A stretch of DNA of 50,746 bases from Thermoplasmatota archaeon (GTDB taxonomy: Archaea; Thermoplasmatota; E2; DHVEG-1): assembly GCA_041550515.1 (NCBI GenBank), contig JBFEOQ010000005.1:1-50746 (forward strand), in the 5' to 3' direction. The notes below the pieces were generated by a model, which worked only from the letters and a program-made list of their open reading frames with translations, did not search any database and was not told the origin of the DNA. Position 1 is the stretch's first letter, and the number at the start of each line of letters is the position of its first letter. Made by a program: the position numbers and the translations under genes. Shown here piece after piece: positions 28,975 to 36,985 of this stretch.

Positions 28975-30171
28975 TTAAAAGTTGGATTTCATTCCATGTG
29001 AAGCCTGATGATATCTTTTAAATTTTTTCATATGTTGATTAGATTTTCTAAAAAATGGAATTCTTATGAAATCTGGAATCTCTGCTTTTTCAATCTCTAG
29101 TTCATTATTGCTCTGTACCCGCCTAAAATTATCATGATCCGGTTTTGTTAAAAGCGTTATTGCTTTACCTTTTTCTCCAGCACGGGCTGTTCTACCAATT
29201 CTATGTATATACTCAATCGAATTTTTTGGTACATCATAATGATATATATGAGTAACATTTTTAATATCTAAACCTCGTGCTGCCACATCAGTTGCAACAA
29301 GTACATCGGTTTTCTCATTTTTTAAAGAATCAAGTGACTTAGACCTTTTATTTTGACTCATTCCCCCATGTATTGCAGTAGCATTAACTCGTTGCTTATT
29401 CAGATTTCTGGCTACAATATCTGATTCTATCCTAGTGGCACAAAATACAATTGAAAGACCTGCGGTATTTTTTTTTAGTAAATGTACAAGAATCGAGAAT
29501 TTACTATCTCGTGGGTAAATATCATAATATACTTGTTCAAGTTTATTTTTATCAACAAGGGATTGGGTTTTTATAACCACAGGATTATTCAAATGTTTAT
29601 TCATTAATTTGTGTATTCCACCTATTATAGTTGCACTAAACATCAGGGTTTGACGCTTCCTATTAGTATATCGTATTATTTTTTCAACGTCTTCAATAAA
29701 TCCCATATCTAACATTTTATCAGTTTCATCTATCACTAGAAATCGAATATTTTTTAAATTAATAGTCTTTCTATTCAGATGATCCAACATCCTACCCGGG
29801 GTTCCAACAATAATCTCAGAACTGAGTATTTTTTTTATTTGTGGTTCTATATTAACCCCCCCATATACTCCAGTTGTTTTAACACCGAGAGTTTCTCCAA
29901 AATCGACAAATACATCATTTATTTGCGCACACAATTCCCTAGTTGGAGTAAGAATAACACATTGTAAACCTCCACCTAAAATAATCTTATCTAATATAGG
30001 CAAACAAAAGGCAAGTGTTTTTCCTGATCCAGTTTCTGCTTGACCTACTACATCTTTTCCTTTAATTATTTCGGGACAACATTTTTCCTGAATAAGAGTC
30101 ATATTTTCTAATTTATTATTTAGTGTTTTATCTATAAGTTTCTTATTTATTTTTAATTCTTCAAATTTCAT
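28975..30171 (-). CDS. DEAD-box ATP-dependent RNA helicase (motif II is DETD)
   Basis: 398 aa. Q motif (TLIQ), AETGSGKT, PTRELC, TPGR, DETD, SAT and HRIGRTARAG. Confidence 0.9.
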   Translation of the reverse strand: MKFEELKINKKLIDKTLNNKLENMTLIQEKCCPEIIKGKDVVGQAETGSGKTLAFCLPILDKIILGGGLQCVILTPTRELCAQINDVFVDFGETLGVKTTGVYGGVNIEPQIKKILSSEIIVGTPGRMLDHLNRKTINLKNIRFLVIDETDKMLDMGFIEDVEKIIRYTNRKRQTLMFSATIIGGIHKLMNKHLNNPVVIKTQSLVDKNKLEQVYYDIYPRDSKFSILVHLLKKNTAGLSIVFCATRIESDIVARNLNKQRVNATAIHGGMSQNKRSKSLDSLKNEKTDVLVATDVAARGLDIKNVTHIYHYDVPKNSIEYIHRIGRTARAGEKGKAITLLTKPDHDNFRRVQSNNELEIEKAEIPDFIRIPFFRKSNQHMKKFKRYHQASHGMKSNF

Positions 30172-30212: not shown

Positions 30213-31166
30213 CTACATAACAATATCAATATCAAGTCTGTTTATCAGTTCTTTATAACGATTACGTATCGTAACTTCTGTAACTCCTGCTACTAATGCT
30301 ACTTCACGTTGAGTACGACGCTCACCACAAAGAACCGATGCAACATACAACGAAGCTGCTGCAAGACCTGTAGGACCACGACCGCTAGTTAATTCTTTTT
30401 GTGATGCGTTTTTTAATATTTCCATTGTCTTTATTTGAACATCATTGCTAAGATCTAATTGATTACAAAAACGAGGAATATAATCTTGAGGTACTGTAGG
30501 AAGTAATTTTAATTCCAATTTACGTGAAATATTACGATAATTTCTCCCAATTTCTTTCTTTTTCATTTCAGTTAATGTACTTATCTCTTCAAGAGTTCTT
30601 GGAACATTACACTGACGACAAGCAGCATATAAAACTGAAGCAGCAACACCTTCTATACTTCTACCGCGTATTAGCTTTCTTCTTACTGCTTTTCTATAAA
30701 TCACAGCTGAAGTCTCACGAACATTTCTTGGTAGACTCATTAAAGAGGAAAACCTATTAAGTGCTGATAATGCAATTGATAAATTTCTTTCTGTACCATC
30801 ACTTATTCTAGTTCTATTTTGCCATTTTCTCAAACGATAAAGTTGTGCACGATTTCTTGCTGGAATAGATTTTCCATATGCATCTCTATTTTGCCAGCTT
30901 ATATTTGTAGAAAGACCTTTATCATGAATCGTATAAGTCATAGGAGAGCCGGTTCGGGTTTTTTTATCTCGTTGTTCATTATCAAATGCACGCCACTCTG
31001 GGCCATGATCAATTATTTCCGCATCTATTACAAGACCACATTTTTCACATACAAGTTCCGCATGAGAATAATCTTTAGTAAGATGTGTATTACCACATTT
31101 CGGACATTTTATTGTTTCTTCAATTATTTGTTCATTTTTATTCTTTCTATCGTTTTTATTTTCCAA
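30213..31166 (-). CDS. tfb: Transcription initiation factor IIB (TFB)
   Basis: 317 aa. N-terminal zinc ribbon CPKCG...CEKCG, B-reader/linker and two cyclin-fold repeats. Confidence 0.92.
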
Positions 31167-31214: not shown

Positions 31215-31406
31215 TTATAATTTTTTTACATTTTTTGCTTGTAGCCCACGTTCTGTTTTTTCAATATCATATTCAACAGAATCATCCTCATTAAGATTTA
31301 CATCCGGAGGTATATTATTTTTATGAACAAAGATGTCTTTTTCATTTTCACCTATTATAAATCCATATCCTTTTATTCTATTGTACCATTTTATTTTTCC
31401 CTTCAT
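31215..31406 (-). CDS. csp: Cold-shock domain protein (CspA family)
   Basis: 63 aa. KGKIKWYNRIKGYGFI (RNP1) and IFVHKN (RNP2). Confidence 0.9.
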   Translation of the reverse strand: MKGKIKWYNRIKGYGFIIGENEKDIFVHKNNIPPDVNLNEDDSVEYDIEKTERGLQAKNVKKL

Positions 31407-31451
31407 ATTATCTTACCTCTTTAATGATAGTTTTTAAAAAATCTATGTATT

Positions 31452-31628
31452 CTAAAAAGAGTTAATGCAATTCTTACAAATTATATTTGCATCAGTATTT
31501 TCTTTTTTTGAAAAATTATCACAAGTATCAGATTCAAAAACTATTAACATTTTATGTTTACATCTAGTTATTTTTTTATTTTCATTTATTGTATTATTTC
31601 TAAATGACTTTTTTCTTGTTTTATTCAT
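31452..31628 (-). CDS. Unannotated 58-aa basic protein with C-X12-C-X14-C-X2-C pattern (paralog 1)
   Basis: Hand translation of the minus strand gives MNKTRKKSFRNNTINENKKITRCKHKMLIVFESDTCDNFSKKENTDANIICKNCINSF. It has the same length and Cys spacing as 32756..32932 and also ends in SF. It lies directly upstream of csp on the same strand. The track ORF 31465..31695 is its antisense. Confidence 0.5.
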   Translation of the reverse strand: MNKTRKKSFRNNTINENKKITRCKHKMLIVFESDTCDNFSKKENTDANIICKNCINSF

Positions 31629-32091
31629 GTTTAATTACCTTCGATTATATTTGATAAAAAAACAAAGTAAAATTAAATCAATATCCTCAAAATAAGAAGA
31701 AGTTGAATCTTAATGTTTTATTTTATTATCATTACCATTACGACATTATATCTTATATACTTTTGTTTTTTAAAACCAAAGTTAATAACAACAAAATGTA
31801 AAAACATCTAGTAAATGTGATATGTCAATAGTATGTGTATTTACTATAGCTAAACTTTTACTTATATCGTATTATCATCCATCACCTTATCATATATCAC
31901 TTTATTTTCTCACATTTTTTACAATATTTAAAATGCATAACTATTTAAGCAAAGACGATTTATATAGACATTGAAAAGATTTAAGATAAAAAAAATTCAC
32001 AACTTCGTTTTATTTCGGACTTTTGAGACTTTTTATTTTTCTTTCTTTTTAAACAATTCCAGATATAATAGTCTGAGGAGGTGAAAAATAT

Positions 32092-32292
32092 ATGAAAGGA
32101 ACAGTAAAATGGTTCAACGATAGAAAAGGATTTGGATTCATACAAGGAGAAGATGAAAAAGATATTTTCGTCCATAGAAACTCAGTTGCTGAAGGTGACT
32201 ATATAACTGAAGGTGACAGTGTTGAATACGAGGTAGAATCCTCTGATAAAGGACCACATGCAATTAATGTTAAAAAATTAAAAAATAACTAA
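32092..32292 (+). CDS. csp: Cold-shock domain protein (CspA family)
   Basis: 66 aa. KGTVKWFNDRKGFGFI and IFVHRN. A strong SD (GAGGAGGTG) lies upstream. Confidence 0.9.
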   Translation: MKGTVKWFNDRKGFGFIQGEDEKDIFVHRNSVAEGDYITEGDSVEYEVESSDKGPHAINVKKLKNN

Positions 32293-32391
32293 ATAAAATA
32301 TTCAAAAACAACAATAATAATTAAGCAATCTGAATTAAAAATTTTGATTGCCTTTATATCTATTTGATTAAATGTTTTGGAGAAAGAAATA

Positions 32392-32733
32392 ATGACAGAA
32401 AAAGCAAATGAAATAAAAAAAACAGAAGAAATTAAGGATGAAAATACAATATTTATTGGTAATAAACCATCTATGAACTACGTTATTGCAGTAGTCACTC
32501 AATTTAACAGCAACAGTAGTAATAAAGTATTTTTAAAAGCAAGAGGTAGGGCAATAAGCAGAGCTGTAGATACTGCTGAAATTGTTAAAAACCGATTTAT
32601 GAAAGATATTATCATTAAAGATATACAAATAGGGACAGAAAATTTAACAAATGAAGAAGGTAGAACATCAAATGTATCAACTATTGAAATAAGTCTAATA
32701 AATAATAGTAAATCTAATTCTAAAAAGAAATAA
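32392..32733 (+). CDS. albA: DNA/RNA-binding protein Alba
   Basis: The ORF track begins at TTG 32377. ATG 32392 is more likely. [14 protein letters not shown]...[21 protein letters not shown] is typical of Alba. The N-terminal extension is acidic and lysine-rich. Confidence 0.85.
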
Positions 32734-32755
32734 AATCTAATATTTTGTGATTAAG

Positions 32756-32932
32756 ATGAATGGAAGAAAAAATAAAAGACATAATAGAAATAAAAATGAA
32801 AAACCAAAAAATATTATTAGATGTGGTTTTAATCAAAAGATTGTATGGGATAATGAATTATGTTCAAGCTTTTTAAAAACTGGAAATTCCTCTTCTGAGA
32901 ATAATTGTAAGACTTGTAAATATTCATTTTGA
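32756..32932 (+). CDS. 58-aa basic protein with C-X12-C-X14-C-X2-C pattern (paralog 2)
   Basis: From ATG 32756: MNGRKNKRHNRNKNEKPKNIIRCGFNQKIVWDNELCSSFLKTGNSSSENNCKTCKYSF. It aligns without gaps to the 31452..31628 product, with 19 of 58 residues identical by my count and Cys at 23, 36, 51 and 54 in both. Confidence 0.55.
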   Translation: MNGRKNKRHNRNKNEKPKNIIRCGFNQKIVWDNELCSSFLKTGNSSSENNCKTCKYSF

Positions 32933-33556
32933 TGATATTATACTTCTCAAAAAAATTATATGGAGATGATATATAGTGAAAGATAAGACTAAGAAACTTA
33001 AAAAGATGATGAAATCAAGGAAGAATAAAAAAATAATCTATAAACAATCTAAATTAATGAAAGGAAATTCTTTCGTAAATTAATTATTTTCTTATATAAA
33101 AAATTAATTCAACATTACATTGCCAAATATCCTTTTAAGATCCTCTTCACTTTGAGCATTTTAATACATCAGATCAACATCAAGTCTTTAAGTAATAACT
33201 GATTTAATCATAATATTTAATGAAAAAAAAAGAGAAAATCTTTGGAAAGGAAATTTTAAGGTTAAGAGGAGAGCATAAAATTGATGTGCATGTAAATACA
33301 ATCAGTGGTAAAACAACATATGATGAAATGGATTTTTATGCTATTACACCAATCTAATAAACTTATTAATAACACTTATCAAAATGTATACAGCCACCTC
33401 AACTTAATTAACATAATAATCCATTTTTTTCTAAATTTTTGGAAGTACTATTAGAATCATAATTTTTAAATTTATGTAACAAAATAATCAATAATGAAAT
33501 TATAAATAAGATTTTGTGATATTAAAAGTAAATTTATATTTCATAAAAGCTGATGA

Positions 33557-33684
33557 TGTCGGGGGCGGGATTTGAGCCCGCGACCTCCTGATATCTTAGC
33601 GCCGAAAGGCTTATTTTATTTTTTCGAACCCTTTAAAGCTTAGCTTATGAGTCAGGCGCTCTAACCAAGCTGAGCCACCCCGAC
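33557..33684 (-). tRNA. tRNA-Met (or Ile2) with anticodon CAU and a 53-nt intron at the canonical 37/38 position
   Basis: Manual fold: acceptor GTCGGGG/CCCCGAC, D arm GCTC-AGCTTGGTTA-GAGC, anticodon stem CCTGA/TCAGG, loop CTCATA|intron|A, variable AGGTC, T arm GCGGG-CTCAAAT-CCCGC, discriminator A. G1-C72 argues for elongator rather than initiator. Confidence 0.85.
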
Positions 33685-33729: not shown

Positions 33730-34149
33730 CTAAACAAAATCCTCGCTCATCATCAAATATTTCTTGTTTCTCATAAATATTGTTTTAATTTTTTCTTTTT
33801 TTGCTCTTTTTTTAAGTTCTTTATCGTTGGAAAGAATTACTCCATTAAGTTTTTTTGCTGTATTTAAAACCGCATCATCTGCTTTTTCAGATTTATCTAC
33901 AACTATTTTATAATTCTTAATAAAAGAAAGAGCAGGTTTTGCATATTGTTTCTGTTTACCTTTACCTTTTTCACACAACAACTTAAGTTCTTCAATAATT
34001 TTATATGGCACTACTAATTCATAACTTCCTAAAAGTCTTAACAATTCCTGTTCTAATTTTATTGAATATTCAAAAATCATCAATATGGCACTACTATCTA
34101 AAACAACTATTTTTAAAGCTGTATTTTTCCGTAACCTATGAGATGCCAT
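33730..34149 (-). CDS. PIN-domain protein (Fcf1/Utp24-like, COG1412-type)
   Basis: 139 aa. Acidic PIN residues in VVLDSS, EEL, ADDAVL and SND. Overlaps the aIF2-gamma 3' end by 37 nt. S6e - aIF2-gamma - PIN gene order. Confidence 0.75.
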
Positions 34150-35348
34150 CGACCGTCAATCCTTCTACTAATAGCAATTCTTTGACCTTCTTGTGCACAA
34201 ACAGCTAATTTAAGTTTAACTCCGACGATTTCTCCATGAAACTCCTTAACTATCCCCACTGTTGTTGCTGTACCTATGGTAAGCATCAATGGCTCATTTG
34301 TTTTAATAGGATCAACATTTTTTTCATCAACAGTTCCTACAACGCGTTTTAATAGAGTGATAGAAAGATTAAAACTATCCTTAACTAGAGGTAACAATCC
34401 TGGTTTACCAATGACTTTTCCAGCGTAAGAATCTGACTTGGTACGAGCAGGATCAAGAAATGTTCCTATAGCAATAAGACCCCCAGGACTAGCTTCTGAA
34501 ACAGATTTACCGCCTGTAATTAAAGAGTCTATTTTAGTAATAATTGGTTCAATTTTTGCCCTACCTTCTACCTCTATATTACGACCAGGGGATATCTCTA
34601 TTTCATCACCTTTATGAAGAATTCCTTGTATAAGTGAACCACCTATAACACCACCACGAATATTATTTGGACTAGTACCAGGTTTATTAATGTCAAAACT
34701 TCTTGCAGTATACATAAAAGGTGGTTTTTCTTTATCACGATTTGGTGTTGGTATCGTTTTTTCTAAAGTTTTAATTAATACATCTATGTTTATATCTTGA
34801 TGAGCACTAACAGGGATTATTGGTGCATTCTCTGCAACTGTTCCTTTAATAAATTTTAAAATTTGTTCATAGTTTTTGATAGCATTATTCTCTGTTACAA
34901 GATCAATTTTATTTTGTATAATAACAATATTTTTGATACCTGCAATATCTAAAGCAGTTAAATGCTCACGAGTTTGAGGTTGAGGACAAGGTTCATTGGC
35001 AGCAATAACTAGAATTGCCCCATCCATAATTGCTGCCCCTGATAACATTATAGCCATTAGGGTTTCATGCCCCGGAGCATCAACAAAAGATACAACTCGC
35101 AGTAGTTCGGTTGATTTTCCACAATTTTTACATTTTTTAGTTGTACAATAACATTTAGGCTCTTCGCAATTTGGACATTTGTAAAAAGCAGCATCAGCAT
35201 AACCAAGTTTTATACTAATACCACGTTTTAATTCCTCTGAATGTTCATCAGTCCATTTGCCTGTAAGACGTTGTGTTAGAGTGGTTTTACCATGATCAAC
35301 ATGACCTATCATTCCAATATTAACTTCAGGTTGCTTTGGAAGACTCAT
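34113..35348 (-). CDS. eif2g: Translation initiation factor aIF2 gamma subunit
   Basis: 411 aa. [19 protein letters not shown] and a zinc knuckle CPNC...C..C. Confidence 0.92.
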
Positions 35349-35788
35349 TATTTATCCTCTTTATTTTCTTCCATTTCTTTCGTATTTTTTCCGTCTGATG
35401 ACTTATCCTCGGTTTTTAAAAGGGAATCGATGGGTTTTGAACTATGTTTTATTACTTTCATATTGATTTGAACAACGTCTTGACTTATAGTATTAGCACG
35501 TATCGATTTTTTCTTTCTCATTCCATGTTCTGTTTCATGAAATCCTTTGCAATCGCTTAAAAGAATTCTTCTACGACTTGTTCCTGGTAAATCCTTCCTC
35601 ATAGCAAAACCATCTTTATCAGTACCACCAGTTATTAGTAATTTATAACCGGGAAGTGATATAAAGATTCCATCCACTTCATCTCCAATTTTTTTACCTA
35701 TTAAAGAGTTAGCATGATGACCACTAACTGGTACTTGATATGACTTACCACTTTTTGTGTCATTTACCACTACTTTAAATTCGACCAT
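35348..35788 (-). CDS. rps6e: 30S ribosomal protein S6e
   Basis: 146 aa. [11 protein letters not shown] and RRRILL signatures. The stop overlaps the aIF2-gamma start by 1 nt (TAATG). Confidence 0.9.
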
Positions 35789-36147
35789 ACTATCTTCACC
35801 ATTATTTCCCTATTTCATTAATTATTTTTTCGGTAACAAAATTATATATTAATAATCTTTGTTTCAAAAGATTATTAGCTATTTTTATAAATTCCTATTT
35901 TTTTTCTCCATATAATCAGCCTTTAAAAAGATTACTACATTATTAATTTATTAATAATTTATAAAAAAGTTTGTAATTTATTATAGTGATCAGCTTCTTT
36001 TTTAATAAAAAATTGTTTAGACTTTACATATAAAATTTTTATAATACAAATCCTTTTTTTTAAAAAGTTATATAAACAATACTTTTATTTTCCAATCTGA
36101 CAAGTACTTTAAAATAAACTATAGTAGTATTTGGGGGAGAATTAAAA

Positions 36148-36285
36148 ATGTCAGAGTTTATCTGGACATGGACTAAAGGAAATACAAAGGTTTTTACTAT
36201 GGATGTTGATTCTGCTGAAAAAGCGATGAAAGAAGGAAACCTTGTAATGGGCGTTAAAGTTCCGCCTAATGTTATGAATATTTAA
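36148..36285 (+). CDS. Small hypothetical protein, 45 aa
   Basis: GGGGGAG SD lies 7 nt upstream of the ATG. Hand translation gives MSEFIWTWTKGNTKVFTMDVDSAEKAMKEGNLVMGVKVPPNVMNI. I recognise no family. Confidence 0.35.
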   Translation: MSEFIWTWTKGNTKVFTMDVDSAEKAMKEGNLVMGVKVPPNVMNI

Positions 36286-36361
36286 TAAAAATTTCTTTGT
36301 GATGAGGTTGCTTTTTTTAACCAAAGATTTTTAGATATGAAGCGTATTAGCTTTCTAAATT

Positions 36362-36985
36362 ATGACTGATTTAGATTATAAGCATTTACTTAAAAAAGTT
36401 GTAGAAAGTTCTAATAAAAAAGAATTAGTAGAAGATAGATTAAAAGTTCCTAAAGCAGATATTTTTTATGAGGGTAATACTACAGTTATAAAAAATTTTG
36501 ATAAAATTACAGATATTTTAAATCGTGAACCTAATGTTATATTAAAATTTTTATTAGGTTCTCTTGGAACAGCTGGTGAACTTGTTGGTCCAAGAGTAGT
36601 TTTCCAAGGGAAAATTCCAACTAAAAATATCCATGATCGAATTAGAGATTATGTAGATATGTTTGTTGTATGTTCTGAGTGTAATCGACCTGATACTCAT
36701 CTTGTAAAACAAGGGCGAGAACTTCTTATTCGTTGTGATGCTTGTGGTGCTTTTCGTTCTGTAAAATCACGTAAGAAAAAAGTTGTAAGTCCGCCAACTG
36801 AAAGTCTTAAAGAAGGTATTACAATAGATCTTAATATCAAAGATATTGGTAAAAAAGGTGATGGTATTGCATATCATGATAAATATATAGTTTATGTATC
36901 TGGTGCAGTTAAAGGAACATTTGTGAAAGTAAAGATTGAAAAAATATCTGGGACTGTAGCATTTGGTCATATTGTTGAAGTGTAA
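36362..36985 (+). CDS. eif2b: Translation initiation factor aIF2 beta subunit with C-terminal TRAM domain
   Basis: 207 aa. The aIF2-beta core includes zinc ribbon CSECNRPDT...CDACG. It is followed by about 60 aa resembling a TRAM beta-barrel (IKDIGKKGDGIAYHDKYIVYVSGAVKGTFVKVKIEKI). Confidence 0.85.
   Translation: MTDLDYKHLLKKVVESSNKKELVEDRLKVPKADIFYEGNTTVIKNFDKITDILNREPNVILKFLLGSLGTAGELVGPRVVFQGKIPTKNIHDRIRDYVDMFVVCSECNRPDTHLVKQGRELLIRCDACGAFRSVKSRKKKVVSPPTESLKEGITIDLNIKDIGKKGDGIAYHDKYIVYVSGAVKGTFVKVKIEKISGTVAFGHIVEV

Follow-up and report, generated by a model that had tools for sequence, protein, structure and literature searches.

The 50,746-nt stretch that opens contig JBFEOQ010000005.1 (positions 1 to 50,746; GenBank assembly GCA_041550515.1, from a Thermoplasmatota archaeon), here called the window, contains two genes, XA and XB, that each encode a small basic protein of 58 residues with four cysteines. 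XA and XB are real genes, and they represent two old paralogues of an undescribed archaeal family of about 58 residues, to which we refer as X. The family-wide arrangement is that of X followed by csp, the gene encoding a cold-shock-domain (CSD) protein, the common unit being X-csp(-DEAD), where DEAD denotes a DEAD-box RNA helicase gene. X probably represents a hitherto unknown component of an archaeal module for RNA handling or cold response.

Two small four-cysteine proteins in the window

XA is encoded on the minus strand (31452..31628) as the first cistron of what we call unit A, and XB on the plus strand (32756..32932), 22 nt after a gene encoding an Alba-family protein in unit B; the XB start can be extended upstream to a GTG at 32747. 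Both open reading frames (ORFs) are recovered by the hidden Markov model of the family (E 7e-20 and 6.5e-24, respectively). An earlier note, made from the letters of this DNA without database searches, had pointed out the two ORFs, and their positions, translations and common length of 58 aa agree with ours. It had also counted 19 identities between the two proteins and placed cysteines at positions 23, 36, 51 and 54 of both: the cysteines are indeed there, and BLASTP with composition adjustment aligns the proteins without gaps at 19/58 identities (E 2e-7). In 50,000 composition-preserving shuffles of XA, the number of ungapped identities to XB never reached 19 (maximum 17). The isoelectric points are 9.6 (XA) and 9.9 (XB), and the net charge resides almost wholly in the first 21 residues, an N-terminal tail that holds 7-8 Lys/Arg.

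The same note called the two proteins unannotated, which holds for the list of ORFs it worked from and not for the public metagenome-assembled genomes (MAGs), where they appear as a 58-aa 'hypothetical protein' or without a name. A public protein identical to XA (P0005) is present on 17 contigs. The orthologues of XA (67-78% identity) lie upstream of a csp gene in every case, and those of XB (72-91% identity) follow csp-alba wherever the flanks are readable (L001-L003). The pairwise ratio of non-synonymous to synonymous substitution rates (dN/dS) between close orthologues, for which the earlier note had named a value near 1 as evidence against its proposal, amounts to 0.29-0.46 in A-type pairs and to 0.54-0.87 in B-type pairs.

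Size, signature and distribution of the X family

Homologues were collected from genomes and metagenomes, a check that the earlier note had proposed, and relatives with the conserved cysteine spacing and an accompanying csp gene were recovered. An exhaustive profile search against 1.84 billion representatives (E <= 1e-3) yielded 44 representative clusters, mostly of 55-61 aa, the longer entries having N-terminal extensions that resemble mis-called starts; word-indexed protein searches returned just 4 close relatives for each of the two peptides. A metagenome scan that used the main-clade sub-alignment as query recovered 135 relatives; 80 loci were retained, 72 of them non-redundant. The family statistics given below refer to the pooled set of 133 unique sequences, again mostly 55-61 aa long. 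They bear out the proposal that X is a true and conserved family of small proteins, marked by the signature C-X12-C-X14-C-X2-C and a basic N-terminal tail: R22 and C23 are 100% conserved, C36, C51 and C54 each 98%, and V30 96%. The spacing C-X12-C is constant wherever the spacing is readable (127/133), and C-X14-C-X2-C is found in 115 of these 127. The family consensus reads M-N-(about 18 basic/polar residues)-K-K-x-I-R-C-x5-P-V-[FY]-E-H-E-x-C-x2-[FY]-x11-C-K-N-C-x-H-S-F. Two additional histidines are conserved in part of the family (H33 is present in 65% of the members, H56 in 60%); they are not essential, because both are missing from XA and XB. A Shine-Dalgarno-like motif (GGAG / AGGTGA) is located 9-14 nt before the X start codon (leader alignment, 59 loci). 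The similarity between the members is not a product of AT bias, because the GC content of the member loci spans 26 to 50% (the window has 28.5%).

The family appears to have a narrow distribution. Neither a scan of the GTDB species representatives with a narrow pattern derived from window-type sequences, nor a first metagenome scan with that same pattern, recovered a relative of X. The window itself is archaeal, as it carries genes for TFB (transcription factor B), aIF2 gamma, aIF2 beta and S6e and an intron-containing tRNA gene. The hosts were judged by Alba: the window protein has its nearest relatives (up to 77% identity) in uncultured Thermoplasmatales MAGs, and the Alba genes found at X loci show 73-80% identity to labelled MAGs. 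Where Alba is present the X loci thus look like Thermoplasmatota, although the taxonomic range is not firm. Among the GTDB relatives of the window Alba (L019-L039) no X was found, and csp is upstream of alba in L025 only.

Profile searches of X against Pfam, NCBIfam, PDB sequences, PADLOC and PHROGs gave chance-level matches only, in line with the statement in the earlier note that the family was not recognised. With PADLOC, XA, XB and the main-clade member P0056 had 0 matches and their neighbours generic CSD and SF2-helicase matches only; the PHROG matches of X all have E >= 0.019. Several known classes were considered and rejected. DUF6970 was matched once, by XA (E 0.014), and was dropped as it is absent from the other members. 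The CPxCG zinc-finger micro-proteins (PF19769) do not fit, as XA, XB and the consensus all lack a CPxCG motif and none of 46 members gave a match. A classical zinc ribbon is contradicted by the presence of a single CxxC (C51-x2-C54) and by first two cysteines that are 12 apart; Zn_Ribbon_1 gave a sub-threshold match in 2/46 members (E >= 0.034). The CCHC zinc knuckle (PF00098, C-X2-C-X4-H-X4-C) was rejected since its pattern is missing from the family alignment and there is no Pfam match, and ribosomal protein bL32 (TIGR01031 / PF01783) since the best E-values were 0.014 in 2/46 members (NCBIfam) and 0.049 in 1/46 (Pfam). Two AlphaFold2 runs agreed on the topology, with a tail that is disordered, a beta-hairpin (20-23/28-31) and, from the CxxC onwards, a short helix. 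Literature searches gave no description of the X family or its operon. We conclude that the family and the operon are undescribed, that small archaeal Cys4 zinc-finger proteins are already known as a class, and that the new features are the fold signature, the linkage of X to csp and helicase genes, and the leader.

Linkage of X to csp and DEAD-box helicase genes

The genomic association was quantified on the 69 of the 72 non-redundant metagenome loci in which 300 nt or more of sequence follow X (informative loci). A csp gene lies directly 3' of X on the same strand in 63 of these 69, which supports the tie between the small proteins and csp that the earlier note had claimed from the window; in 4 of the remaining 6 the gene directly 3' of X encodes a DEAD-box helicase. 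Within the 51 loci that have at least 900 nt downstream, a DEAD-box gene follows X or X-csp at a distance of at most 400 nt in 19, and the complete order X-csp-DEAD in 15. The background is low: just 4 csp genes were found in the 161.7 kb located more than 500 nt from X. In an earlier, more diverse collection of loci, a same-strand csp was present within 611 nt in 10/12 contexts. The individual arrangements are X-csp (unit A of the window, L015, L017, L040 and L043), csp-alba-X (unit B of the window and L001-3), csp-alba-csp-X (L047) and csp-42 aa-Y-X (L045), in which Y is a second small protein described further below.

The csp genes linked to X (L053-L130) encode a divergent CSD subfamily with a characteristic segment (IPF[FLW]-x-[IL]-[FLY]-L), and in one clade of these proteins the ribonucleoprotein (RNP) motifs RNP1 and RNP2 are degenerate. 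The close relatives of window unit A (L015, L017) carry this X-linked CSD type. Genes encoding transcription factor B (TFB) or the TATA-binding protein (TBP) are frequent neighbours of X, and the order X-csp-TFB of unit A also occurs in L040.

Organization of units A and B

Unit A has the order XA-cspA-TFB-DEAD, with all genes on the minus strand and gaps of 41-48 nt. cspA (31215..31406) starts 45 nt after XA, with GAGGT before its ATG, and matches PF00313 (67.7 bits, E 8e-19); TFB (30213..31166; Pfam Zn_Ribbon_TF and TFIIB), for which an identical gene is present in L005, follows 48 nt downstream, and the DEAD-box RNA helicase gene (28975..30171; Pfam DEAD and Helicase_C) a further 41 nt downstream. 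Unit A is probably a single operon, with the helicase gene as its likely last member. Unit B is encoded on the plus strand and starts with cspB (32092..32292; PF00313, 79.1 bits, E 2e-22), followed after 99 nt by alba (32392..32733; PF01918, E 1e-20), the ATG of which (32392) is preceded by GGAG and the product of which is called as 113-114 aa in relatives, and then by XB. The csp and Alba neighbours that the earlier note had named are thereby confirmed. Both csp products score above the gathering cut-off of the CSD profile (27 bits) and have the RNP motifs KGYGFI/IFVH and KGFGFI/IFVH. A 35-aa Lys-rich ORF with a GTG start (32976..33083, plus strand), 43 nt after XB and with GGAG upstream, is a possible fourth gene of unit B: it has no family match, is conserved in L001 and L002, where it is better kept than XB, and its changes are mostly synonymous in the 3' two-thirds.

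The earlier note had read the locus as two mirror-image modules that arose from an inverted duplication of csp plus small protein, and this interpretation did not survive. The order is not mirrored, as X is first in unit A and last in unit B; the cores of XA and XB are 36% identical to each other, as compared to 47-55% identity to members in other genomes; and in other genomes an A-type orthologue can occur with no B-type one close by, and vice versa. An inverted duplication is thus contradicted by the identities, by the gene order, by the solitary orthologues and by the family-wide order X-csp. The sole inverted repeat at the DNA level covers the 5' halves of cspA and cspB (31318..31408 and 32090..32180; 91 nt, 78%), and its identity far exceeds the similarity of the adjacent X genes; possibly, gene conversion has acted on the csp pair. 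In our view unit A retains the ancestral X-first order, and unit B (cspB-alba-XB) is a rarer, lineage-specific arrangement that is now positioned back-to-back with unit A.

Promoters and leaders

The non-coding spacer of about 460 bp that had been noted between the two units has that size (31629..32091, 463 bp) and is not empty, as it holds two divergent promoter-like elements, 168 bp apart. The candidate TFB-recognition element (BRE) and TATA box of unit A (ACAAAAGTATATAAG, 31752..31766, minus strand) is located about 133 nt before the XA start and fits the family-wide motif TGCAAAACTATATAAG. That of unit B (GCATAACTATTTAAG, 31935..31949, plus strand) is located about 152 nt before the cspB start and is the sole exact match in the window. 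Over the family, a TATA-like motif in TGCAAAACTATATAAG is present at -123..-142 from the X start in 58/67 X-first loci (L053-L132; e.g. L097, L110), and the motif of unit A is invariant in close relatives. In the csp-first units the motif lies 138-156 nt before csp, and this placement was seen in L001, L002, L040, L043, L045 and the first csp of L047; the second csp of L047 gave no match to the motif. These distances imply 5' untranslated regions of about 105-120 nt. With 5' ends placed by the TATA position, the leader of unit A would span about 100 nt (31629..31735, minus strand), and that of unit B, with a similarly inferred 5' end, about 120 nt (31972..32091, plus strand). Scans for sigma-70 promoters and intrinsic terminators gave chance-level results, as expected for an archaeon.

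Both window leaders are more conserved among relatives than the adjoining coding DNA. The leader of unit A is near-invariant in 5 relatives, the XA coding DNA of which varies more. The leader of unit B is conserved in L001-3 and in the distant L040, L045, L047 and L025, with the blocks TTTTGAGA and CCAGA-N8-TCTGAGGAGGTGA, and it contains a small hairpin before the Shine-Dalgarno motif that is kept in 8/9 sequences. A shared fold was found in most of 56 leaders and in both window leaders: a long U-tract base-pairs with an A/G-rich arm at the 5' end, and an apical hairpin lies within this stem. For 22 sequences of one clade, 84.9% of the alignment cells are paired; with slid partners the value drops to 48-69%. 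Compensatory changes occur at 5 pairs of the inner helix, the observed covariation score was reached by only 2/500 shuffles, and the outer stem shows hardly any variation. RNAalifold found no consensus structure in a mixed alignment of all leader types, the inner hairpin being returned only for the clade-restricted alignment. The Rfam cspA thermoregulator (RF01766) matched the cspB leader at 20.6 bits (E 0.013; cut-off 78), in a stretch (31998..32141) that runs into the csp coding sequence. The long leader is thus conserved and probably contains a hairpin, an RNA family is not established by these data, and the main-clade leader is a candidate archaeal csp-operon leader RNA that might act as thermosensor or attenuator.

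Proposed function and alternative explanations

On balance, we lean towards a role for X as a small zinc-binding, RNA-binding partner of a CSD plus helicase system in uncultured Thermoplasmatota. The protein has an Arg/Lys/Asn-rich tail that is disordered, spans about 20 residues and bears a charge of about +6, and a mini-domain of about 37 residues (R-C-X12-C-X14-C-X2-C plus the conserved C-terminal S-F), in which the four cysteines would coordinate one zinc ion; the 98-100% conservation of these cysteines and the modelled hairpin and CxxC helix bear on this proposal. It is usually encoded as the first cistron of an X-csp(-DEAD) operon that is preceded by a conserved promoter and a U-rich, probably structured leader of some 105-120 nt. 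X may then bind RNA via the basic tail and the zinc knuckle and act together with the co-expressed CSD RNA chaperone and the helicase in RNA remodelling, most plausibly in response to cold or a related stress, so that the arrangement would amount to a CSD and a zinc module that are split into separate genes. More tentatively, it is possible that X, a specialised CSD paralogue and the DEAD-box helicase behind a structured U-rich leader make up an unrecognised archaeal cold-shock/RNA-remodelling regulon, in which X would be a new class of zinc-dependent cofactor (or a temperature/redox switch) that binds and retargets the CSD protein, and the leader an RNA thermosensor or attenuator that is analogous, without being related, to the 5' untranslated region of bacterial cspA.

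Various observations weigh against a zinc- and RNA-binding partner as described here. The functional statements on X all derive from sequence and context, with zinc binding proposed from the cysteine pattern alone. One B-type variant (P0004; L002:5001-5168, L003 and L004), seen on 3 independent contigs, has an in-frame deletion of 3 residues and lost one cysteine of the CxxC; its lineage has the highest dN/dS (0.59-0.87), so that constraint may be relaxed here or a site with three cysteines tolerated. Confidence in the structure models is moderate to low: the mean predicted local distance difference test score was 69 for the XB query (core about 80) and 62 for P0056, and a Foldseek search of the better model (XB) against the PDB returned nothing below E 6. 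The linkage to csp has exceptions, in that L044 and L050 are contexts without any csp, and the window cspA is of the canonical and not of the X-linked CSD type, an appearance that could be explained by the possible gene conversion between the csp copies. Finally, the window leaders do not fold with significantly better energies than shuffled sequences do (z -0.6, and -1.4 for unit A), and the covariance model of the main-clade leader scores them at 13 bits (E 7), within the AU-rich noise; because the model does not single them out, we do not claim them as homologues of that leader.

The gene order leaves room for two alternatives in which X acts on its own operon. X could be an autoregulator that binds the promoter DNA or the U-rich leader RNA with a zinc finger and so sets the expression of csp and helicase; it is the first cistron after an unusually conserved promoter and leader, TFB or TBP genes often adjoin it, and small zinc-finger regulators are known in archaea, such as the Brz protein of Halobacterium. 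We nevertheless consider this rather unlikely, as the shared transcript should make X about as abundant as csp, which is atypical for a regulator, X is 3'-terminal in csp operons with the same kind of leader (unit B, L045/L047), and a recognisable DNA-binding fold is lacking. Alternatively, X could matter in cis only, as a translated leader that controls csp and yields a functionless peptide, which the mostly directly upstream position (with gaps of a few tens of nt) would allow. This is highly improbable: the fixed length, the invariant R-C and the cysteine spacing over the 133 sequences indicate a folded product, X is also found downstream of csp/alba or without csp, and it has its own Shine-Dalgarno-like motif.

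Other explanations concern the protein itself. A ribosome-associated or assembly protein that works with the DEAD-box helicase and the CSD protein in ribosome biogenesis or low-temperature translation would fit the size, the basic tail and the Cys4 pattern, which resemble those of small zinc-ribbon ribosomal proteins, as well as the weak, sub-threshold bL32 matches in 1-2/46 members and the abundance of translation genes near the window units (aIF2 gamma, S6e, aIF2 beta); moreover, the bacterial DEAD-box protein CsdA has a role in ribosome assembly in the cold. Such a role strikes us as doubtful, since the distribution looks narrow (with 0 relatives in the single GTDB scan with the narrow window-type pattern), two divergent X copies occur per genome, the tight linkage is to csp and not to ribosomal-protein operons, and ribosomal families were matched at chance level only. 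A sensor of redox state or of metal, in which the cysteines form reversible disulfides or an Fe site and thus switch the CSD protein or helicase under stress, could gain from H33 and H56, which raise the number of possible ligands to six, and from the habitats of the hosts, which the sample names indicate to be anoxic sediments where redox gradients exist. It is very unlikely: the window proteins lack both histidines and yet retain the cysteines, and the family-library searches linked X to no known redox-switch or Fe-S family. That XA and XB would be chance non-coding ORFs, as might be feared for short ORFs with low-complexity N-terminal tails in a window of 28.5% GC, is refuted by the shuffles, by the retention of the signature in homologues of up to 50% GC and by the conserved synteny.

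Comparison with known systems

Cold-shock-domain proteins have a patchy occurrence in archaea, and to our knowledge almost nothing is known about their regulation and working partners there. The combination of a CSD with a small basic Cys-based zinc module (putative in the case of X) for RNA binding is reminiscent of Lin28 and the plant CSD proteins, which carry CCHC zinc knuckles after the CSD within a single chain. Unlike in Lin28, X and the CSD protein are encoded by separate, adjacent cistrons and their association is putative; the cysteine spacing is C-X12-C-X14-C-X2-C versus C-X2-C-X4-H-X4-C, and the likeness is not a demonstration of homology. The grouping of a CSD gene with a DEAD-box helicase gene behind a long, conserved, U-rich and probably structured leader resembles bacterial cspA (RF01766) and CsdA/DeaD. 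It differs from the bacterial cold-shock regulon in being one archaeal operon with a BRE/TATA promoter, and bacteria do not have a counterpart of X. With bL32, eS27 and RpoP/Rpb12, X shares a size of about 50-60 aa, a strongly basic character and four cysteines; those proteins are universal and have two CxxC knuckles, whereas X is apparently narrow in distribution.

The haloarchaea encode CPxCG-related one-domain zinc-finger micro-proteins, such as HVO_2753 and HVO_2400, most of which are functionally unassigned and some of which have been tied to stress adaptation (PMC10117724, PMC6562870). Like these, X is archaeal, shorter than 70 aa and essentially made up of one Cys4 mini-domain; unlike these, it is without CPxCG, has one CxxC knuckle and carries a long basic tail. 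The obligate linkage to csp is a feature of X that is unreported for the haloarchaeal micro-proteins.

The data define a conserved three-part operon (Cys4 protein, CSD protein and DEAD-box helicase) in widespread sediment Thermoplasmatota, which is a concrete candidate for an archaeal cold/RNA-stress module and provides a candidate new small zinc protein acting on RNA. As the parts are small, heterologous expression is feasible despite the uncultured hosts. The case also illustrates that ORFs of less than 60 aa, which are hidden by standard cut-offs, may be some of the best-conserved genes in their locus.

Neighbouring genes

The second small protein, Y, is uncharacterised, 59-68 aa long and marked by the motif RYPG[FY]-x-WR, and its gene is found repeatedly beside csp, alba or X (L025:4360-4536, L044:3637-3843, L045:3649-3846, and also L077 and L104-L106); Y has no Pfam match and no homologue in the window. 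Downstream of unit B, a 45-aa ORF (33220..33357, plus strand) without Pfam match is also called in contigs of MAGs of the same species (L005-L007). The region 33730..36985 contains a PIN_9-domain gene that overlaps the 3' end of the gene for aIF2 gamma by 37 nt, followed by the genes for S6e and aIF2 beta (TRAM domain); by this translation-gene neighbourhood, the csp/X units sit in an information-processing region. Between these genes and the 45-aa ORF lies a tRNA-Met(CAT) gene (33557..33684, minus strand), the anticodon loop of which is interrupted by a 53-nt intron; the gene has an Rfam match and is found by ARAGORN only when introns are allowed.

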